From: a virus
Length of the DNA stretch: 20,019 nucleotides
Virus genome (UHGV): UHGV-0180141
Reading direction: 5' to 3' (one strand)
Within the stretch, counting starts at the first letter, position 1, and each line of letters starts with the position of its first letter. Below the pieces are notes generated by a model. The model was given only the letters and a program-made list of their open reading frames with translations, searched no databases and was not told the origin of the DNA. Both the position numbers and the translations under genes were made by a program. This document shows, piece after piece, positions 11,735 to 18,688 of the stretch.

Positions 11735-13051
11735 ATGGCTACGTGGCAACAGGGTATTAATTCTGGTGGTTTTCTGGCTGGCATCGGTACGCAAAATGAG
11801 AATGCGCCAAAGGCAAGCGACATTAACGCAACGCTTGGTCTGATCCGCGAAAACAATGAACTGGCTCGCTCAGGTGCAAATAACGTTGGGCTGACTGCTT
11901 TGCAAGGCCTTTCAGGCATTGCGGAGTCTCAGCGGCAGAAAGAATTTCAGCAGGCGTACGCTAATGCTTATGCGTCTGGTGATCGCAGTGCTTTGCGTCA
12001 GTTGGCTACTCAATATCCAGAACAGATTGAATCCGTTCGTAAAGGCATGGGATTCATTGATGAAGATCAGCGTAATTCTATCGGCACCTTAGCGGCTGGC
12101 GCACGCCTTGCGTCATCGTCTCCTGATGCGATGGCTAACTGGCTGCAATCTAACGCCGGTGAGTTAGCTCGTGTTGGCGTTAATCCTCATGACGTCGCTC
12201 AGATGTACCAACAGAACCCGCAGCAGTTCGGCGAATTTGTCGATCACCTGGGGATGGCCAGTCTCGGACCCGAAAAATACTTTGACCTACAGGATAAAAT
12301 GCAGGGTCGCCAGGTTACCATGCGCGGTCAGGATCTGGATTCGCAAACCGCCGCCCGGAATCAGGCAATCACAATGCGCGGACAAGATATCCAGGCGAAT
12401 TTAGGTCAACAGCGCATTAATCTGGACGCAGAAACAAACCGCATTAACTACGAAAATAAGCGCCTTGACCGGATGCTATCAGCAGAAACTAACGACCTGA
12501 AGCGCCAGGAAATACAGAGCCGCATAGCAGCCAACAACCAGCAGTTGCAGCAGAAGCAGCAAGCGCTAAATGATGGCTACAAAGACGGCATCAACACTCT
12601 CACAACCAGCATGTTCACTCTGAACGATATCGTTAGTTCTCCTTCACTTAAGAGCATTACAGGCTTACGTGGAGTAATCCCCAACGTTCCAGGCTCACAG
12701 GCTGCAGACACTCAGGCACGACTTGATACCTTTAAATCCCAAGCATACCTGACAGCGGTTCAGGCCATGCGAGGCATGGGCGCACTTTCTGATGCCGAGG
12801 GCAAAAAGCTCGACCAGGCTGTTGGTTCGCTGCAGAACTCGCAGAGCGAGGAGTCCTTTCGTCGCAACGCTGGCGTCATCCTGAACACACTCAACCAGAA
12901 GCGTAATGAGGCGGTTGGTAAGTACGTTCAGCAAAACGGTATCAAGCGAGTGGAAGCGCCTCAGGCTTCTATAGATTACCTGAAGCAGCACCCCGAGCTG
13001 TCAATCGACTTCATTAATCGCTACGGATATCTTCCATCTTTGGGGCAGTAA
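11735..13051 (+). CDS. ejection (injection) protein (P22 gp20-like)
   Basis: 438 aa; position between gp7-like and gp16-like genes; low-complexity Q/A/N-rich composition typical of ejection proteins. Confidence 0.78.
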   Translation: MATWQQGINSGGFLAGIGTQNENAPKASDINATLGLIRENNELARSGANNVGLTALQGLSGIAESQRQKEFQQAYANAYASGDRSALRQLATQYPEQIESVRKGMGFIDEDQRNSIGTLAAGARLASSSPDAMANWLQSNAGELARVGVNPHDVAQMYQQNPQQFGEFVDHLGMASLGPEKYFDLQDKMQGRQVTMRGQDLDSQTAARNQAITMRGQDIQANLGQQRINLDAETNRINYENKRLDRMLSAETNDLKRQEIQSRIAANNQQLQQKQQALNDGYKDGINTLTTSMFTLNDIVSSPSLKSITGLRGVIPNVPGSQAADTQARLDTFKSQAYLTAVQAMRGMGALSDAEGKKLDQAVGSLQNSQSEESFRRNAGVILNTLNQKRNEAVGKYVQQNGIKRVEAPQASIDYLKQHPELSIDFINRYGYLPSLGQ

Positions 13052-15787
13052 ATGGCTAATTACCGTGATTTGTTAGAGCAGGCTGGCGCACGTTACGGTG
13101 TGCCAGAAGGGTTGATGACTGCACTGGGTGCCAAGGAGTCTTCTTACAACCCTGCCGCAGTAAGCTCCGCCGGGGCTGTAGGATTGACTCAGGTCATGCC
13201 TGGGACATGGCGTGATATGGGTTATACCGATGAGCAAATGCAAAACCCCGAATATCAGGCTGACGCTGGCGCGCGCTATCTGGCAAAGATGTACCAGCAG
13301 TTTGGTAACTGGCGTGACGCTCTTCAGGCTTATCACGACGGCCCCGGCAACGTTATGAAGGCAAAGCGTGGTGAATATACGCCAGGACCTGAAGGCCGCG
13401 GTTACGTTGATGATCGCTTTGCTCAATGGGCGGGTGACCCGGTGACAGACTCAACAGTCGAACAGCGCGCCACCTCTGCAAAGGTACATCCTCAGCAAGA
13501 CCCTAACAACCCGTTTGCACAACTGGAAGCACAGTCATCCGAACAAGTATCGGCATCAGGCGTGCAGTCAGACCCAAATAATCCATTTGCTCAGATTGAG
13601 CAGCAGGCAGCCAGTCAGCAGCCACCTCAACCCGTAAGTTCTGTCGCACCGAAACCTGTTCAGCAACAAACAGTTAATCAGGCCAATAATGCACCAACAC
13701 GGGAAGAACCATCATTGATGCAACAAGCTGGTGATTGGCTCACAGGTGGTCAAAGTGCAGGGCAAATTGCAGAGCAGGCTGGTCGTGGTCTGGTAAACAT
13801 ACCATTTGACGTATTGCAGGGTGGCGCAAGTCTGATTAATGCAATCAGCCAGGGGCTTGGTGGCCCCAAGGTTTTGGACGATGTCTATCGTCCAGTAGAT
13901 CGACCGACAGACCCTTATGCGCAAGCTGGAGAGTCAATAGGCGGTTATCTTGTTCCTGGAGCAGGAGTAGCTGGAAACATGGTCATTGGTTCTCTCGCTG
14001 ACGCGGCGAATCAACGGGGTGATTTTGCCGAAAATGCCGCTATTAATGCCGGACTTAACATTGCTACGCATGGCCTGATAAATGGCGTTACCCGTGGTGT
14101 TCGTGGCGCATCAAATATAATTAGTGGCAATAAAACATCTGCACAGAGAGCGACCACTGCGCCAACAGAAACATCACCATTCTCCGGTGATGCCGCTGCA
14201 GCAACAAATCCTGCGGTTCATGCCGCAGAGGCAAGAGCAGCACAAGGTGTACCAATGACGCCTGCGGCGAGGGACCCAGAGGAGGTCGTTCGCACAGTAG
14301 CAGCACAAAAAAGGCCAAATCTCGCTTCATCGCTTGATGAACTAGATATCAATCCTCAGGCTGAAGTTCTGGAGTCTGCTGAAAGGCTTAATGTTGATTC
14401 ATTACTCCCTTCACACTTTTCCGGGAACGAGCAATACAAGGCAGTTGAGCAAGCAATCAAGTCCCGTGCGGGTTCTGCTCTACGGGTGCAGGAAAATGAA
14501 GCAATCAGGCAACTAGCACAGGGCGCGGGGGAGATAATTGATCGCGTTTCCGGTGCAAAAGATGCTCTTGGTATGAGCGACAAGTTTATTGATACGATCA
14601 ATGGAAGAATGTCTGCGCTGATGAAACGAAGCGACCAGCTTTATCGCAATGTTGAAAAGGCGATGCCTGCAGGTGCAAAAATTGATGCGCCATCAACAAG
14701 GTCAATGCTCAAACAGGTGGCAGAAGATCTTGGCGGGATGAAAAACCTTGACCCTATTGAAAAGAGAGTCTTTCGGGCAGTTAATCCAGGCAAGAACGGC
14801 GCATTAACTTATGCAAATCTCAATAAGCAACGACGACTTGTTGGTGATGCACTTCATAAGAAGTCTGGACCATATAAAGATGCTGATCGCGCTGCTTTAT
14901 CGAGGCTTTACGGTTCGCTCGCCGATGATCAAAAGGCGGCGCTGTCAGAGACAAATGCATTACGTGATTTTGAAGTTGCTCAGAGGCTTGTTCAGATGCG
15001 AAAAAGCATGGAAGAGCAAATGATTAATCTAACTGGCAGAACACTGAACGGTGATGTTTCTCGCAAAGCAACTACAGCACTACAGGCAATGTCGAAAGGC
15101 GATGCCAAAGGATTTCGTGAATTGATGCAAAACACGCCGTCCAGGAAGCTAAGAACCGAGCTACTGGGAACAGGTCTTCGGGATATGCTTTCGAACGGAA
15201 AACGTGGCGCTGATTTTAATCCTGCAGGGTTTGCTGACTGGTATCAAAACATGTTAGCAAACGGGCAGATGCGCAATCTTGCCCGACATTTACCAAAAGA
15301 GACTATGTCAGGTCTGAACGATGTATATAAGGTCGCAAAGGCTATCAAAGACGCAAAATCTTACGAGATAACTACAGGAAGACTAAACGAGTTCGTCAAA
15401 CGGTTTAATCGCGTCACTGCGGCAAATGAATTTGTTGCTAACCATGCCCAACGCATTGGCACTGCGGTTGGTTCAACTGTGTCAGGACCGTTCAGTGCAG
15501 TAGGTGCTGTTGCTGGGTCAGAAATTGGGGCAAAAGTCGCCAGCAAAATCAGGGCGATGGGCGGCGCTGAATCAATTGAATCTGCAGAAAAGCTAATTAG
15601 CTCACCAGAATTCCAGAAAGCAGCAAGGCTGGCAGTAAAACAAGCACCAGAAAGCATCGTTGATACAACTGTAAGACGCTCTTCTGCTTGGCGCTCGTTT
15701 TACAACTCACTTCCAGAATCAGATAAGAAAACCATATCAAGGCTAGGCATCATGTACTGGATGAACAGTGATGATAACCAGAAGTAA
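13052..15787 (+). CDS. ejection protein (P22 gp16-like) with N-terminal lytic transglycosylase (SLT) domain
   Basis: 911 aa. N-terminal ~110 aa carries SLT-like motifs ([10 protein letters not shown] with candidate catalytic Glu, [19 protein letters not shown]); then a Q/P-rich linker with a tandem DPNNPFAQ(L/I)E repeat, then a long helical/Ala-Gly-rich body. Last gene of the plus-strand string, start abutting the gp20-like stop. Confidence 0.85.
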
Positions 15788-15804
15788 CGGAAAGCCACGG
15801 ATGG

Positions 15805-15888
15805 TTAGTTGCTGTCTTTTTTATATAAATCTCTGAGCGTATCAAAGACAATTTTCTTTACCATATCGGATTGTTGGTCTGCAATACG
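15805..15888 (-). pseudogene. remnant of the 3' end of a P22-type mnt gene (C-terminal ~27 codons only)
   Basis: Minus-strand translation gives ...RIADQQSDMVKKIVFDTLRDLYKKDSN*, closely matching the P22 Mnt C-terminus (...RLADEQSELVKKMVFDTLKDLYKKTT, from memory). No Mnt-like N-terminal region upstream in any frame. The frame is continuous with the lipoprotein ORF stop at 15976-15978. Confidence 0.5.
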
Positions 15889-15975
15889 CGATGCTATTGG
15901 TAGCGATGAATTCAATCGCTTGTCGAGAGCTGGTATTGTCGCCTCGTTAAGCGGTATGAATGAATATGAATAGCT

Positions 15976-16461
15976 TTATCTAATGTTGCTGCTACTGTTG
16001 CATGTGACGGTATTTCCAAATCCTGAATTGCAGTTTGTATATGTGTCAACGCGCGTTGGGTAAGGTTGAGTTATAACAGGCTGGCGCGCTTTTTGCTCGA
16101 TCGCTTGCATTGTGTTTACAGCCTGATAATTCAATAAAGCCTGCTGGAATGCTTGGCTTTGTGCTATTTGTTGGGCTTGTTCTTGGCTTTGTAATTGAAC
16201 ATAAAGATTCTGAAGCTCAAGTCTTGCCTGCGCGTCACTTATCTTGCCATCATCGACACCTTGCCCGAGCATCTTCGCAGCAAGGACATATAACTTAGGT
16301 GTTGGTGCTGATGCCATGCGTGAGTCGTTCTTCACACTGGCATCAAGGCAATTAGCCATATCGCTAAGCTTTGGATAGCGTTGCTCGCAACTTGCCTGAT
16401 AGTCGCTTACTTTTGCGCACCCAGCCAGCAGAAGCGGGATAATTAACAGTGATTTTTTCAT
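15976..16461 (-). CDS. predicted lipoprotein (161 aa) of unknown function; possible superinfection-exclusion moron
   Basis: Start chosen at internal ATG (rc of 16459-16461) giving MKKSLLIIPLLLAGC..., a signal peptide with lipobox LAGC; strong RBS TAAGGAGAG 8 nt upstream. Mature part is Q-rich/helical with a Cys-containing C-terminus. The track ORF extends 17 codons upstream to 16512 without an RBS. Confidence 0.72.
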   Translation of the reverse strand: MKKSLLIIPLLLAGCAKVSDYQASCEQRYPKLSDMANCLDASVKNDSRMASAPTPKLYVLAAKMLGQGVDDGKISDAQARLELQNLYVQLQSQEQAQQIAQSQAFQQALLNYQAVNTMQAIEQKARQPVITQPYPTRVDTYTNCNSGFGNTVTCNSSSNIR

Positions 16462-16495
16462 ATAATTAACTCTCCTTAGTTTTGCGCAGGATACC

Positions 16496-16861
16496 ATGAA
16501 AAAAGTTAACATTGGAAACGTACCAAAGATGCTCGTTCCGCTCTTTGAGAGCGGTACAATTGTGTTTTGTAGAGACTTTCCAGAATGGCAACGCCTGCAT
16601 CAAAAACTTGGCGTTGACGTGCATGACTCGGACGCCAACGGAGCGTCTCATACAATGAGCAGCGAGAATGGTGTTTTGCATGTGATAGGCGTGTTCAATG
16701 GCAAACTATCTACTATTGCCCATGAGTGCGCTCACATGGCATTCGATATCTGCTCAAGGGTCGGCGTTGATGTTGAACCAGGAAGAGCCAACGAGACTTA
16801 CTGCTACTTAATGAGCAGGCTTGTTGAGTTCTGCGAGCGACATATCAAAAAGCCGGAGTGA
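16496..16861 (+). CDS. small HExxH-motif protein (121 aa), putative ImmA/IrrE-like zinc metallopeptidase
   Basis: Contains ...VLHVIGVFNGKLSTIAHECAHMAFD..., fitting the (F/T)(I/L)AHE..H pattern of M78/ImmA-type peptidases, with candidate third ligands (Glu/Asp) downstream. AGGA 5 nt upstream of ATG; divergent from the lipoprotein gene with only 34 bp between start codons. Confidence 0.6.
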   Translation: MKKVNIGNVPKMLVPLFESGTIVFCRDFPEWQRLHQKLGVDVHDSDANGASHTMSSENGVLHVIGVFNGKLSTIAHECAHMAFDICSRVGVDVEPGRANETYCYLMSRLVEFCERHIKKPE

Positions 16862-16872
16862 CCCGGCTTGAT
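16851..16872. terminator. putative bidirectional terminator between convergent genes
   Basis: Hairpin AGCCGG-agtgac-CCGGCT (16851-16868) with T-rich sequence on both strands; overlaps the stop codon of the HExxH gene. Confidence 0.45.
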
Positions 16873-17054: not shown

Positions 17055-17144
17055 GATATACCTCAACATGCACCCGTTATTGGGCGATTAAATATTGATC
17101 TCATTTTATAAGTAGTCAATATGGCCCAGGTAAATGCAAAAATT

Positions 17145-17168
17145 AACCCACCGTCAGGTGGGTTTTTT
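17145..17168. terminator. putative bidirectional rho-independent terminator at the 3' end of the mnt-like gene
   Basis: Hairpin AACCCACC-gtca-GGTGGGTT (17145-17164) followed by TTTTTT on the plus strand and by TTAATTTTTGCATTT on the minus strand; the mnt-like stop codon lies in the loop. Confidence 0.55.
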
Positions 17169-17474
17169 GTTTAGCAGTTCTCTCAACTTTTCGTTCTGCT
17201 CTCTGAACTTTTCCTGTATTTCTTTTTGCATGGCGATAACCTGGGCTTGAAGTTGAACTAGCGCATCAACATTTAGCGGAACCGAGACGCTGTTGATTTT
17301 GTCTGCTATTTCCCCAAGAGTATTTTCTGCATTCAAGGCATCTTCCAGTATCTGCACAATCTCTGAGTTCATAGAGCGCCCGTTTCGTTTGGCTCTCTCC
17401 GCAATCGCGTCCCTCATCCCGTCAGGGAAACGCACAACAAACTTTTCGTAATCTTTAACCTGCTTTTCAGCCAT
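17154..17474 (-). CDS. mnt: Mnt-like ribbon-helix-helix repressor (106 aa)
   Basis: N-terminus KFVVRFPDGMRDAIAERAKRNGRSMNSEIVQILEDAL matches the Arc/Mnt RHH fold signature (NGRS(M/V)NSE); helical C-terminal extension; GAGGTG RBS 5 nt upstream; divergent from the arc-like gene as in P22 immI. Confidence 0.8.
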   Translation of the reverse strand: MAEKQVKDYEKFVVRFPDGMRDAIAERAKRNGRSMNSEIVQILEDALNAENTLGEIADKINSVSVPLNVDALVQLQAQVIAMQKEIQEKFREQNEKLRELLNKKPT

Positions 17475-17809: not shown

Positions 17810-18688
17810 ATGAAAAGTATAGCAAAGGCACAAAACGATTTCACCATCTTCAAATTCGGCGACAGTGAAATCCGCGTCATCAACAAGTGCGGTGAGCCGT
17901 GGTTTGTAGCAAAAGATGTTTGTGATGCTTTAACTCTGACTAACTCACGCAAGGCGCTTACTGCACTTGATGACGATGAGAAGGGAGTAACTTTAAGTTA
18001 CACCCTTGGTGGTGAGCAGAATTTAAGCATTGTGAGCGAATCAGGTATGTATACATTGGTTCTGCGCTGCCGCGATGCAGTCAATAAAGGTTCAGTCCCG
18101 CACAAATTCCGCAAGTGGGTAACAGCAGAAGTTCTGCCTTCAATTCGCAAACATGGCGAGTATGTAAAAGGAAAGAAAACCACTGTTGAGGAAAGAACAC
18201 CGCTACGAGATGCAGTAAACATGCTGGTAGGAAAGAAAGGACTTCGCTATGACGATGCATACAATATGGTTCATCAGCGTTTTGGTATTGACAGCATTGA
18301 TGAACTTTCAATTGAACAAATCCCGCTGGCCGTAGAGTACATCCACAGGGTAGTGCTTGAAGGTGAGTTCATTGGCAAACAAGAGAAGAAAACCAACGAG
18401 CTTTCTGCAAAAGAAGCAAACAGCCTTGTATGGCTATGGGATTATGCCAACCGCTCACAGGCATTATTCCGCGAATTGTATTCGGCGCTAAAACAAATTC
18501 AATCGAACTATTCCGGCAGATGCTACGACTACGGTCATGAATTCTCGTATGTTATCGGAATGGCGAGAGACGTTTTAATCAATCACACACGAGATGTTGA
18601 TATTAATGAGCCAGACGGACCAACGAATCTTTCCGCATGGATGAGACTTAAGAATAAAGAATTACCTCCTTCAGTACATAACTACTGA
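17810..18688 (+). CDS. ant: antirepressor Ant (BRO-N/KilA-N-type N-terminal domain)
   Basis: 292 aa (P22 Ant about 300); N-terminal [18 protein letters not shown]...[10 protein letters not shown]...[17 protein letters not shown] is the Bro-N/antirepressor signature; follows arc. Confidence 0.85.

Follow-up and report, generated by a model that had tools for sequence, protein, structure and literature searches.

What does a small lipoprotein gene do in the late region of a P22-like phage, oriented against the late operon? The viral genome UHGV-0180141 poses this question in a stretch of 20,019 nucleotides (the window, by which we mean the whole stretch of DNA that was analysed). It is, as an earlier note on this DNA had held, of phage origin, and its genes are those of a P22-like (Lederbergvirus) late region that extends from terminase as far as the immI region, in the order terminase, portal, scaffold, coat, ejection proteins, lipoprotein (minus strand), hkcC (plus), Arc/Mnt-like (minus) and Ant (plus). 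The lipoprotein gene appears to be an accessory ('moron'-type) gene of a P22-like prophage, situated in the sieA slot between the ejection gene 16 and the tailspike gene 9. We estimate a probability of about 40% that its product may be a superinfection exclusion protein that acts on the DNA delivery of incoming phages, as reasoned by analogy below.

A lipoprotein gene in the place of sieA

We aligned the window with P22 and HK620. From CTCCTTAG (plus strand, the Shine-Dalgarno (SD) sequence) rightwards the three sequences match at all but two isolated positions, and leftwards they are unrelated. Megablast identity to P22, HK620 and about 60 relatives starts at window position 16468, directly upstream of the lipoprotein ATG, and the leader common to P22 sieA and HK620 hkcB runs from about 16468-16472 rightwards; the cargo junction falls between the SD sequence and the ATG. 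The occupant at this position and in this orientation is sieA in P22 and hkcB in HK620. Since the genomes match on one side of the SD sequence and are unrelated on the other, sieA, hkcB and the lipoprotein gene are three unrelated open reading frames (ORFs) that serve as alternative cargo behind one leader, ribosome-binding site (RBS) and promoter region. The left boundary of the lipoprotein cargo is its stop codon. The position of the SieA family, which is leftward and flanked by genes 16 and 9 in a P22-like prophage, was found in the window and in all informative loci of the survey described below, and the SD block also precedes the lipoprotein gene in the other upstream contexts.

The promoter annotated as 'P sieA' in the P22-pbi record (L001, 2528-2558) is 100% identical to its window counterpart, which falls within the 5'-most 31 nt of the hkcC ORF. 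PsieA was reportedly mapped in a 1995 paper by Hofer et al. The earlier note had placed both divergent promoters inside the neighbouring coding sequence; this agrees with the annotated PsieA, but not with hkcC, for which the scan found no promoter inside the lipoprotein gene. Because hkcC lies on the late-operon strand and the terminator scan detected no terminator between gene 16 and hkcC, a promoter within the lipoprotein gene would, by analogy with P22, not be required. P22 late transcription reads through to gene 9.

In P22, sieA plus 85 bp of upstream DNA is enough for exclusion, and escape mutations map to gp16 and gp20 (Leavitt et al., 2024, PMC10883804). Only 22 of the 66 sequenced P22-like phages carry sieA (PMC10883804), and our searches of that paper turned up no mention of what fills the slot in phages without it.

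A predicted outer membrane lipoprotein under strong constraint

The mechanical ORF of the lipoprotein gene extends further than the coding sequence in Table 1, up to 16512. The ATG at 16461, which begins the protein with MKK, is supported as the start because an AAGGAG lies 10 nt upstream (CTCCTT on the plus strand, 16472-16477), because all homologues have the same start, and because it puts the lipobox cysteine at position 15. Of the span 15976-16495 that the earlier note had given to the gene, the coding sequence therefore covers the part up to 16461, and the rest is intergenic leader; its figure of 34 bp between the divergent start codons is exact (16462-16495).

The N-terminus, MKKSLLIIPLLLAGC in the minus-strand translation, has the features of a bacterial lipoprotein, with a basic n-region, a hydrophobic h-region and a lipobox [LVI][ASTVI][GAS]C, and the signal peptide is the only hydrophobic segment of the protein. 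We then applied the lipobox prediction that had been proposed as a check, using a rule of the PROSITE PS51257 type (basic n-region, six non-charged residues, [LIVMFWSTAG]2-[LIVMFYSTAGCQ]-[AGS]-C, with the cysteine at 15-35). The window protein passes with its cysteine at position 15, as do all 85 full-length close homologues and 101 of 138 remote homologues. The residues that follow are Ala at +2 and Lys at +3, so that the canonical lipobox and the Ala at +2 described earlier are both borne out. At +2, 79 of the 85 close homologues have Ala, four have Val, two have Thr and none has Asp, and the lack of Asp agrees with the +2 rule of the Lol pathway in Enterobacteriaceae for sorting to the outer membrane.

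The protein aligns with phrog_6067 over its full length (E 3.4e-110; all 161 residues against all 161 profile positions) and is a member of this family, which is annotated as 'unknown function'. When 5.8 billion proteins were searched, 94 relatives emerged, all from Enterobacterales (E. coli, Citrobacter, Serratia, Klebsiella aerogenes, Cronobacter, Yersinia, Pectobacterium, Morganella, Providencia and Tatumella), and among these no Pfam domain was found save for one weak, partial match. The gene is present in 186 of 5426 complete E. coli genomes (about 3%), LF82 and O104:H4 included, and is chromosomal every time. Against E. coli alleles the ratio of non-synonymous to synonymous substitution rates (dN/dS) is 0.016-0.053 at a dS of about 0.15; in comparisons with other genera, synonymous sites have reached saturation and the proportion of non-synonymous differences (pN) is 0.12-0.31. 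Taken together, the full-length profile match, the 94 homologues and the low dN/dS mean that the predicted ORF is a real gene, far beyond chance. Along the coding sequence, about 14-15% of synonymous sites but only one to three amino acids differ between the window allele and the other E. coli alleles L003, L023 and L040. Many synonymous and few amino acid differences indicate old allelic lineages under strong constraint.

Four cysteines (Cys15, Cys25, Cys38 and Cys154) are invariant across 29 diverse members, and a fifth (Cys144 in the window protein) is kept within a C-terminal TxC...G....C motif. The mature protein thus contains the pairs C25/C38 and C144/C154, whose conservation suggests two disulfides, consistent with an exported protein. 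Scans of the lipoprotein against Pfam (at E <= 0.1), NCBIfam and PADLOC gave nothing significant, a sequence profile search of the PDB gave no match, and neither profile nor fold placed the protein in the Cor, Llp, Bor or TraT lipoprotein families. An NCBIfam match to GspK of the type II secretion system was dismissed (18 bits against a cut-off of 130).

One slot, several neighbours

To place the gene in its context, we gathered 92 gene-carrying loci, drawing on IMG/VR, GTDB genomes, Logan/NCBI contigs and phage records; they represent E. coli, Serratia, Morganella, Providencia and Tatumella. All 84 loci that extend far enough have a gp16 homologue as the next gene downstream, in convergent orientation, and in nearly all loci long enough to show it the head-binding domain of the tailspike (gp9) is found upstream. 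Type-A (P22-like) sieA or hkcB was found in none of the 92 (P22 SieA by tblastn). The adjoining gp16 belongs to at least four types, namely Gally-type (39 loci), P22-type (24), HK620/Dewey-like (18) and the SLT type of the window (2), and linkage of the gene to one gp16 type, for example to the SLT domain, was accordingly rejected.

On the upstream side the arrangement varies. The neighbour is a same-strand Mnt-like gene in 35 loci, a divergent hkcC in 18, a different divergent gene of 139 aa (Gally14) in 17 and the tailspike itself in five, with other arrangements in the remaining loci. In O104:H4 the order is mnt, a 104-aa ORF and the lipoprotein gene, all leftward, as in the mnt-orf59a-sieA order of P22, and in Morganella the lipoprotein gene stands alone between gp16 and the tailspike. 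The 35 loci and O104:H4 place the gene downstream of a same-strand Mnt-like gene, as sieA is in P22, which supports a role in exclusion. The arrangement of the window recurs in the IMG/VR contig L039, with an identical 188-bp spacer, 100% identity of the hkcC protein and 98% identity of the lipoprotein and gp16. The small gap between the start codons had been taken to imply coordinated or mutually interfering regulation with the HExxH gene, here identified as hkcC. That proposal is not upheld by the survey: with hkcC adjoining in only 18 of 92 loci, the pairing is one mosaic among several, and any coordinated regulation is incidental to it and not the mark of a functional unit.

In phages Dewey, Louie and APC_JM3.2 the flanking late genes are about 96% identical to those of the window and the lipoprotein gene is absent, so that the gene shows the presence and absence among close relatives expected of a dispensable moron. 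The slot was inspected in Dewey and APC_JM3.2 and is empty in both, so that the gene is dispensable, moron-type cargo that is not needed for lytic growth. As to expression signals of its own, the PsieA homologue is identical to that of P22, and a consensus promoter and a downstream terminator were not detected.

The variety of gp16 neighbours also bears on whether the leftward RNA, rather than the protein, could be the active product, reaching antisense into the 3' end of gene 16 and silencing incoming relatives, with the ORF secondary. The terminator scan found no minus-strand terminator between the lipoprotein stop and gene 16 (15788-15976), and in the lack of an intrinsic terminator the lipoprotein mRNA may run antisense into the gene 16 3' end. 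There is a precedent at the same junction in STnc6030 of phage BTP1, a leftward prophage antisense RNA at the gp16/gp9 junction that excludes BTP1 (PMC7067206). Strong purifying selection on the protein, at the dN/dS values given above, speaks against this explanation, as do the retention of the lipoprotein across genera and beside at least four unrelated gp16 alleles and, in the window, a 188-bp scar that parts the ORF from gene 16. We give it hardly any credence, and an RNA effect would be additional at most.

Transcription from the prophage

The orthologue in prophage Gally of E. coli LF82 (GALLYPH_13, LF82_138) is 99.4% identical to the window lipoprotein, and values for it are available from published RNA-seq (PMC9928086, S1 Table), as log2(fpkm+5), with fpkm for fragments per kilobase per million, in two replicates. 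They are 6.29 and 5.96 in overnight LB, 7.87 and 8.15 after 1 h and 8.02 and 8.22 after 6 h in culture medium, and 10.29 and 10.30 after 1 h and 8.70 and 8.54 after 6 h in macrophages. By comparison, gp16 and other structural genes remain at about 3-4 in all conditions (PMC9928086). With the gene up while structural genes are silent, its transcription from the prophage does not depend on the lytic programme. Real expression, which had been argued earlier from the strong RBS, is in this way confirmed for the orthologue; expression in lysogens, as expected of superinfection exclusion systems, comes from the LF82_138 data and not from the window's own arrangement. LF82_138 and LF82_139 are among the highest-expressed Gally genes in macrophages (PMC9928086, S1 Table).

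In LB the normalised counts of LF82_138 average 70 (78 and 62), which is 4.5 times the prophage median of 15.6 and makes it the second most expressed Gally gene behind the c2 repressor (PMC9928086). The authors of that study set their moron cut-off at five times background (78.1) and concluded that 'Gally is devoid of morons' (PMC9928086). Because LF82_138 narrowly missed this cut-off, the conclusion is a threshold effect, and we correct it here. A preprint on CRISPR interference in LF82 does not mention the lipoprotein gene.

These data weigh on a role in the lytic cycle, in which the protein would shield progeny from adsorption to debris in the manner of T5 Llp, or act as a spanin-like lysis accessory or an assembly factor. 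The gene does adjoin virion genes, and a predicted outer membrane lipoprotein with a long helix loosely resembles periplasm-spanning lysis proteins. Such a role nevertheless appears very unlikely to us, given expression in the lysogen while late genes stay at background, the orientation against the late operon, the absence of the gene from the closely related Dewey, Louie and APC_JM3.2, and a location outside the lysis cassette with no match to an Rz1 or spanin model.

The same profile raises the alternative of an envelope factor of lysogenic conversion that serves the bacterial host (in stress, serum or host-cell interaction), like Bor/Iss of lambda, and that is switched on in host-like conditions. 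LF82_138 rises from a log2 value of about 6.1 in LB to about 8 in medium (1-6 h) and to 10.3 in macrophages at 1 h, neighbouring right-end Gally genes are co-induced, pathotypes, LF82 and O104:H4 for example, carry the gene, and the wider family described below has chromosomal lipoproteins without phage context. However, macrophage survival of LF82 is unchanged after deletion of the whole Gally prophage, and the protein does not resemble Bor or any other known virulence lipoprotein. That the gene is strictly tied to the gp16-gp9 slot, common to sieA and STnc6030, also suits phage-phage conflict better, and we therefore regard a host factor as unlikely, although the induction gives it some weight.

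Predicted structure and remote relatives

We modelled the lipoprotein with AlphaFold2 (AF2). The mean predicted local distance difference test (pLDDT) score was 62 with 29 sequences and rose to 86.6 with 122 sequences that included remote relatives. The model predicts a compact helical head (helices 18-28, 32-45, 47-51 and 53-70) that holds C25 and C38, followed by one continuous helix of 50 residues (76-125), about 75 Å in length, and, after a flexible linker, a beta-hairpin (139-159) of lower confidence that is closed by C144/C154. The mature lipoprotein contains 13.6% Gln. A Foldseek search of the pLDDT 86.6 model against the PDB returned nothing at E < 1.

An exhaustive hidden Markov model (HMM) search of 1.84 billion representatives gave 256 remote relatives, none with a Pfam family. 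Most, at 125-140 aa, have the head and the C-terminal Cys hairpin in common. Some (P0132, P0147, P0170 and others) carry an ordinary AxA-type signal peptide in place of the lipobox, and the wider family therefore has, by prediction, soluble periplasmic as well as lipid-anchored forms. The remote contexts that we inspected lie on a Pectobacterium chromosome between dsbB/holE and minCDE, on a metagenome contig in the vicinity of uvrC and on a mobile element of Sulfuritalea, with no recurrent partner gene among them, and searching viral and metagenome contigs for the remote subfamily gave no match. With no fold match and no recurrent partner, the fold and the wider family give no functional clue.

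Surrounding features of the window

The coordinates of the features are collected in Table 1.

Table 1. Features around the lipoprotein gene in the window
Feature	Position	Strand	Basis
gp20-like ejection protein	11735-13051		
gp16-type ejection (DNA transfer) protein, 911 aa, with N-terminal SLT lytic transglycosylase domain	13052-15787	+	Pfam SLT 3.3e-25; phrog_21143, phrog_770
188-bp spacer of recombination scars	15788-15975	.	blastn and terminator scan
Lipoprotein coding sequence, 161 aa	15976-16461	-	Translation; stop codon 15978-15976, ATG at 16461
Lipoprotein signal peptide, aa 1-14	16420-16461	-	Translation
Codon of predicted lipidated Cys15	16417-16419	-	Lipobox rule
34-bp leader with Shine-Dalgarno AAGGAG	16462-16495	-	Window/P22/HK620 alignment; megablast
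Homologue of annotated P22 PsieA promoter (leftward, putative)	16496-16526	-	P22-pbi annotation and alignment
hkcC homologue, 121 aa, HECAH motif	16496-16861	+	97.9% nucleotide identity to HK620 hkcC; phrog_1365
Bidirectional intrinsic terminator after hkcC	16850-16869	.	Scan matches on both strands; annotated tORF59A in HK620, t mnt in P22
immI-like region: 106-aa Arc/Mnt-like protein	17154-17474	-	phrog_1287
immI-like region: Ant antirepressor	17810-18688	+	Bro-N and P22_AR_C domains

The gp16-type gene is convergent with the lipoprotein gene, and P22 gp16 (609 aa by annotated coordinates) is without the N-terminal SLT extension of the 911-aa protein. The spacer between the two genes is built from remnants of others. 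Positions 15881-15966 are the 3' end of a Dewey/HK620-type gp16 allele, with 100% nucleotide identity to the Dewey gp16 3' end (blastn); the translated remnant, AIRDAIGSDEFNRLSRAGIVASLSGMNE, is the C-terminus of Dewey gp16, and blastn found 100% identity over 95 nt in 12 loci having a Dewey/HK620-type gp16. A 3' (C-terminal) remnant of a Mnt-like gene occupies about 15805-15889. These scars explain both a 54-aa plus-strand ORF and the stop-free stretch past the lipoprotein stop codon, and readthrough as the meaning of that stretch was rejected.

On the other side of the leader, window hkcC also has 97.9% nucleotide identity to an unannotated equivalent in P22. There, at 2528-2890 of L001 (P22-pbi, AF527608), an intact hkcC ORF with 99% amino acid identity to the window protein begins with the 31 nt that coincide with the annotated PsieA. 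The hkcC protein gave no Pfam, NCBIfam or PADLOC match, and the function of phrog_1365 is annotated as unknown. An N-E pair follows the second His of HECAH by 20 residues, the same spacing as in thermolysin (H142ExxH146...N165-E166), and a phmmer search of the PDB gave sub-threshold matches only, to thermolysin/neutral protease over that stretch (E 0.09-0.66). The hkcC product may be a 'mini-gluzincin'. Between positions 15700 and 17200 the sole consensus sigma-70 site is TTGACT-17-AATATT on the minus strand (17091-17119), which points leftward to an orf59a-like ORF and the terminator after hkcC.

Discussion

The same slot, leader and RBS as P22 sieA make superinfection exclusion, which the earlier note had suggested, the likeliest of the functions considered and, by analogy, a much stronger reading than the sequence alone had allowed. 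To this positional and regulatory equivalence are added the action of BTP1 STnc6030 at the same junction and the precedent of Cor, Llp and Ltp as phage exclusion lipoproteins. After export and lipidation, the protein would be anchored in the inner leaflet of the outer membrane and would present into the periplasm its disulfide-stapled helical head, the Gln-rich helix of about 75 Å and the disulfide-closed C-terminal hairpin. This stalk would be long enough to bring the hairpin near the peptidoglycan. The protein could disturb the delivery of DNA by incoming phages, at the outer membrane or in the periplasm, either by acting from the outer membrane side to stop the gp7/gp20/gp16 trans-envelope conduit from assembling or by masking a secondary receptor in the outer membrane. 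The lipoprotein would then do the job that inner membrane SieA does in P22.

Several observations weigh against this interpretation. An exclusion phenotype has yet to be measured in any member of the family, the proposed function being deduced from position and architecture, and neither the sequence nor the fold of the lipoprotein resembles SieA, Cor, Llp, Ltp, Bor or the PADLOC defence models. The third occupant of the slot, hkcB, has no known function, and the slot is not proven to be exclusion-only. The consensus promoter scan misses the PsieA site, which is a putative promoter here, and the region upstream of LF82_138 is of the Gally14 type instead of hkcC/PsieA. LF82_138 also lies just under the five-fold cut-off and was not scored as a moron by the LF82 authors, and its strongest induction, in cell-culture medium and macrophages, could suggest a host-related role. 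Finally, remote homologues occur in ordinary chromosomal contexts.

It is tempting to go further and to speculate that the lipoprotein represents a new class of exclusion proteins of P22-like prophages, anchored in the outer membrane and reaching into the periplasm, in which the 75 Å helix would hold the hairpin at the peptidoglycan, where it would intercept the nascent gp7/gp20/gp16 conduit or an SLT-bearing gp16 of podoviruses that enter. The gp16-gp9 junction would then be a dedicated site for swappable 'exclusion cassettes', be it SieA in the inner membrane, the lipoprotein in the outer membrane, HkcB or an antisense RNA. We put this extended proposal forward tentatively and consider it somewhat doubtful. 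Should the lipoprotein exclude phages at all, it would offer a way to study how the ejection proteins of podoviruses get across the periplasm. A conserved lipoprotein that replaces sieA precisely behind the same expression signals in any case fills a gap left by the work on SieA, and bears on the host range of phage therapy in E. coli, Serratia, Morganella and Providencia.

How does the lipoprotein compare with known systems? Bor/Iss of lambda is an outer membrane lipoprotein moron expressed from the prophage, and Bor has been noted in the LF82 prophage Perceval. It differs from the window protein in its serum-resistance function, its family (no Pfam match at E <= 0.1) and its locus. Cor (phi80/N15/HK022) and T5 Llp are small phage outer membrane lipoproteins that protect the cell from phage entry, and thus belong to the mechanism class proposed here. 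In contrast to the lipoprotein, they block the FhuA receptor of siphoviruses, are shorter, have no helical stalk and occupy other genomic positions, and the window protein had no Pfam or fold match to them. Ltp of the Streptococcus thermophilus phage TP-J34 is likewise a phage exclusion lipoprotein, but it has a Gram-positive host, a helix-turn-helix repeat fold and the tape measure as its target, with no sequence or structural match.

The remaining three systems share the locus. BTP1 STnc6030 is, like the lipoprotein gene, prophage-expressed, leftward and placed at the gp16/gp9 junction of a P22-like prophage, whereas its product is an RNA and its specificity for its own phage comes from base pairing. 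HkcB of HK620 and the lipoprotein are alternative occupants of the identical slot and leader, both divergent from hkcC. HkcB is 109 aa long, has no lipobox and is unrelated in sequence; it gave weak coiled-coil-type matches only, all below the curated score cut-offs of the families. P22 SieA shares with the lipoprotein the slot convergent with gene 16 and upstream of the immI region and gene 9, the leader, the SD sequence, the annotated PsieA region, the leftward orientation, expression from the prophage, the nature of dispensable cargo and a similar size (162-164 aa against 161 aa). SieA, however, is an inner membrane protein with three transmembrane segments and no signal peptide (PMC10883804), whereas the window gene encodes a lipobox lipoprotein with a predicted location in the outer membrane. 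No sequence similarity was found between the two, the topology of the SieA family is not found in the lipoprotein, and the function of SieA is proven whereas that of the lipoprotein is deduced from position. The lipoprotein thus appears to stand in the place of SieA without belonging to its family and, if the proposed function is correct, would be the first counterpart of SieA on the outer membrane side.

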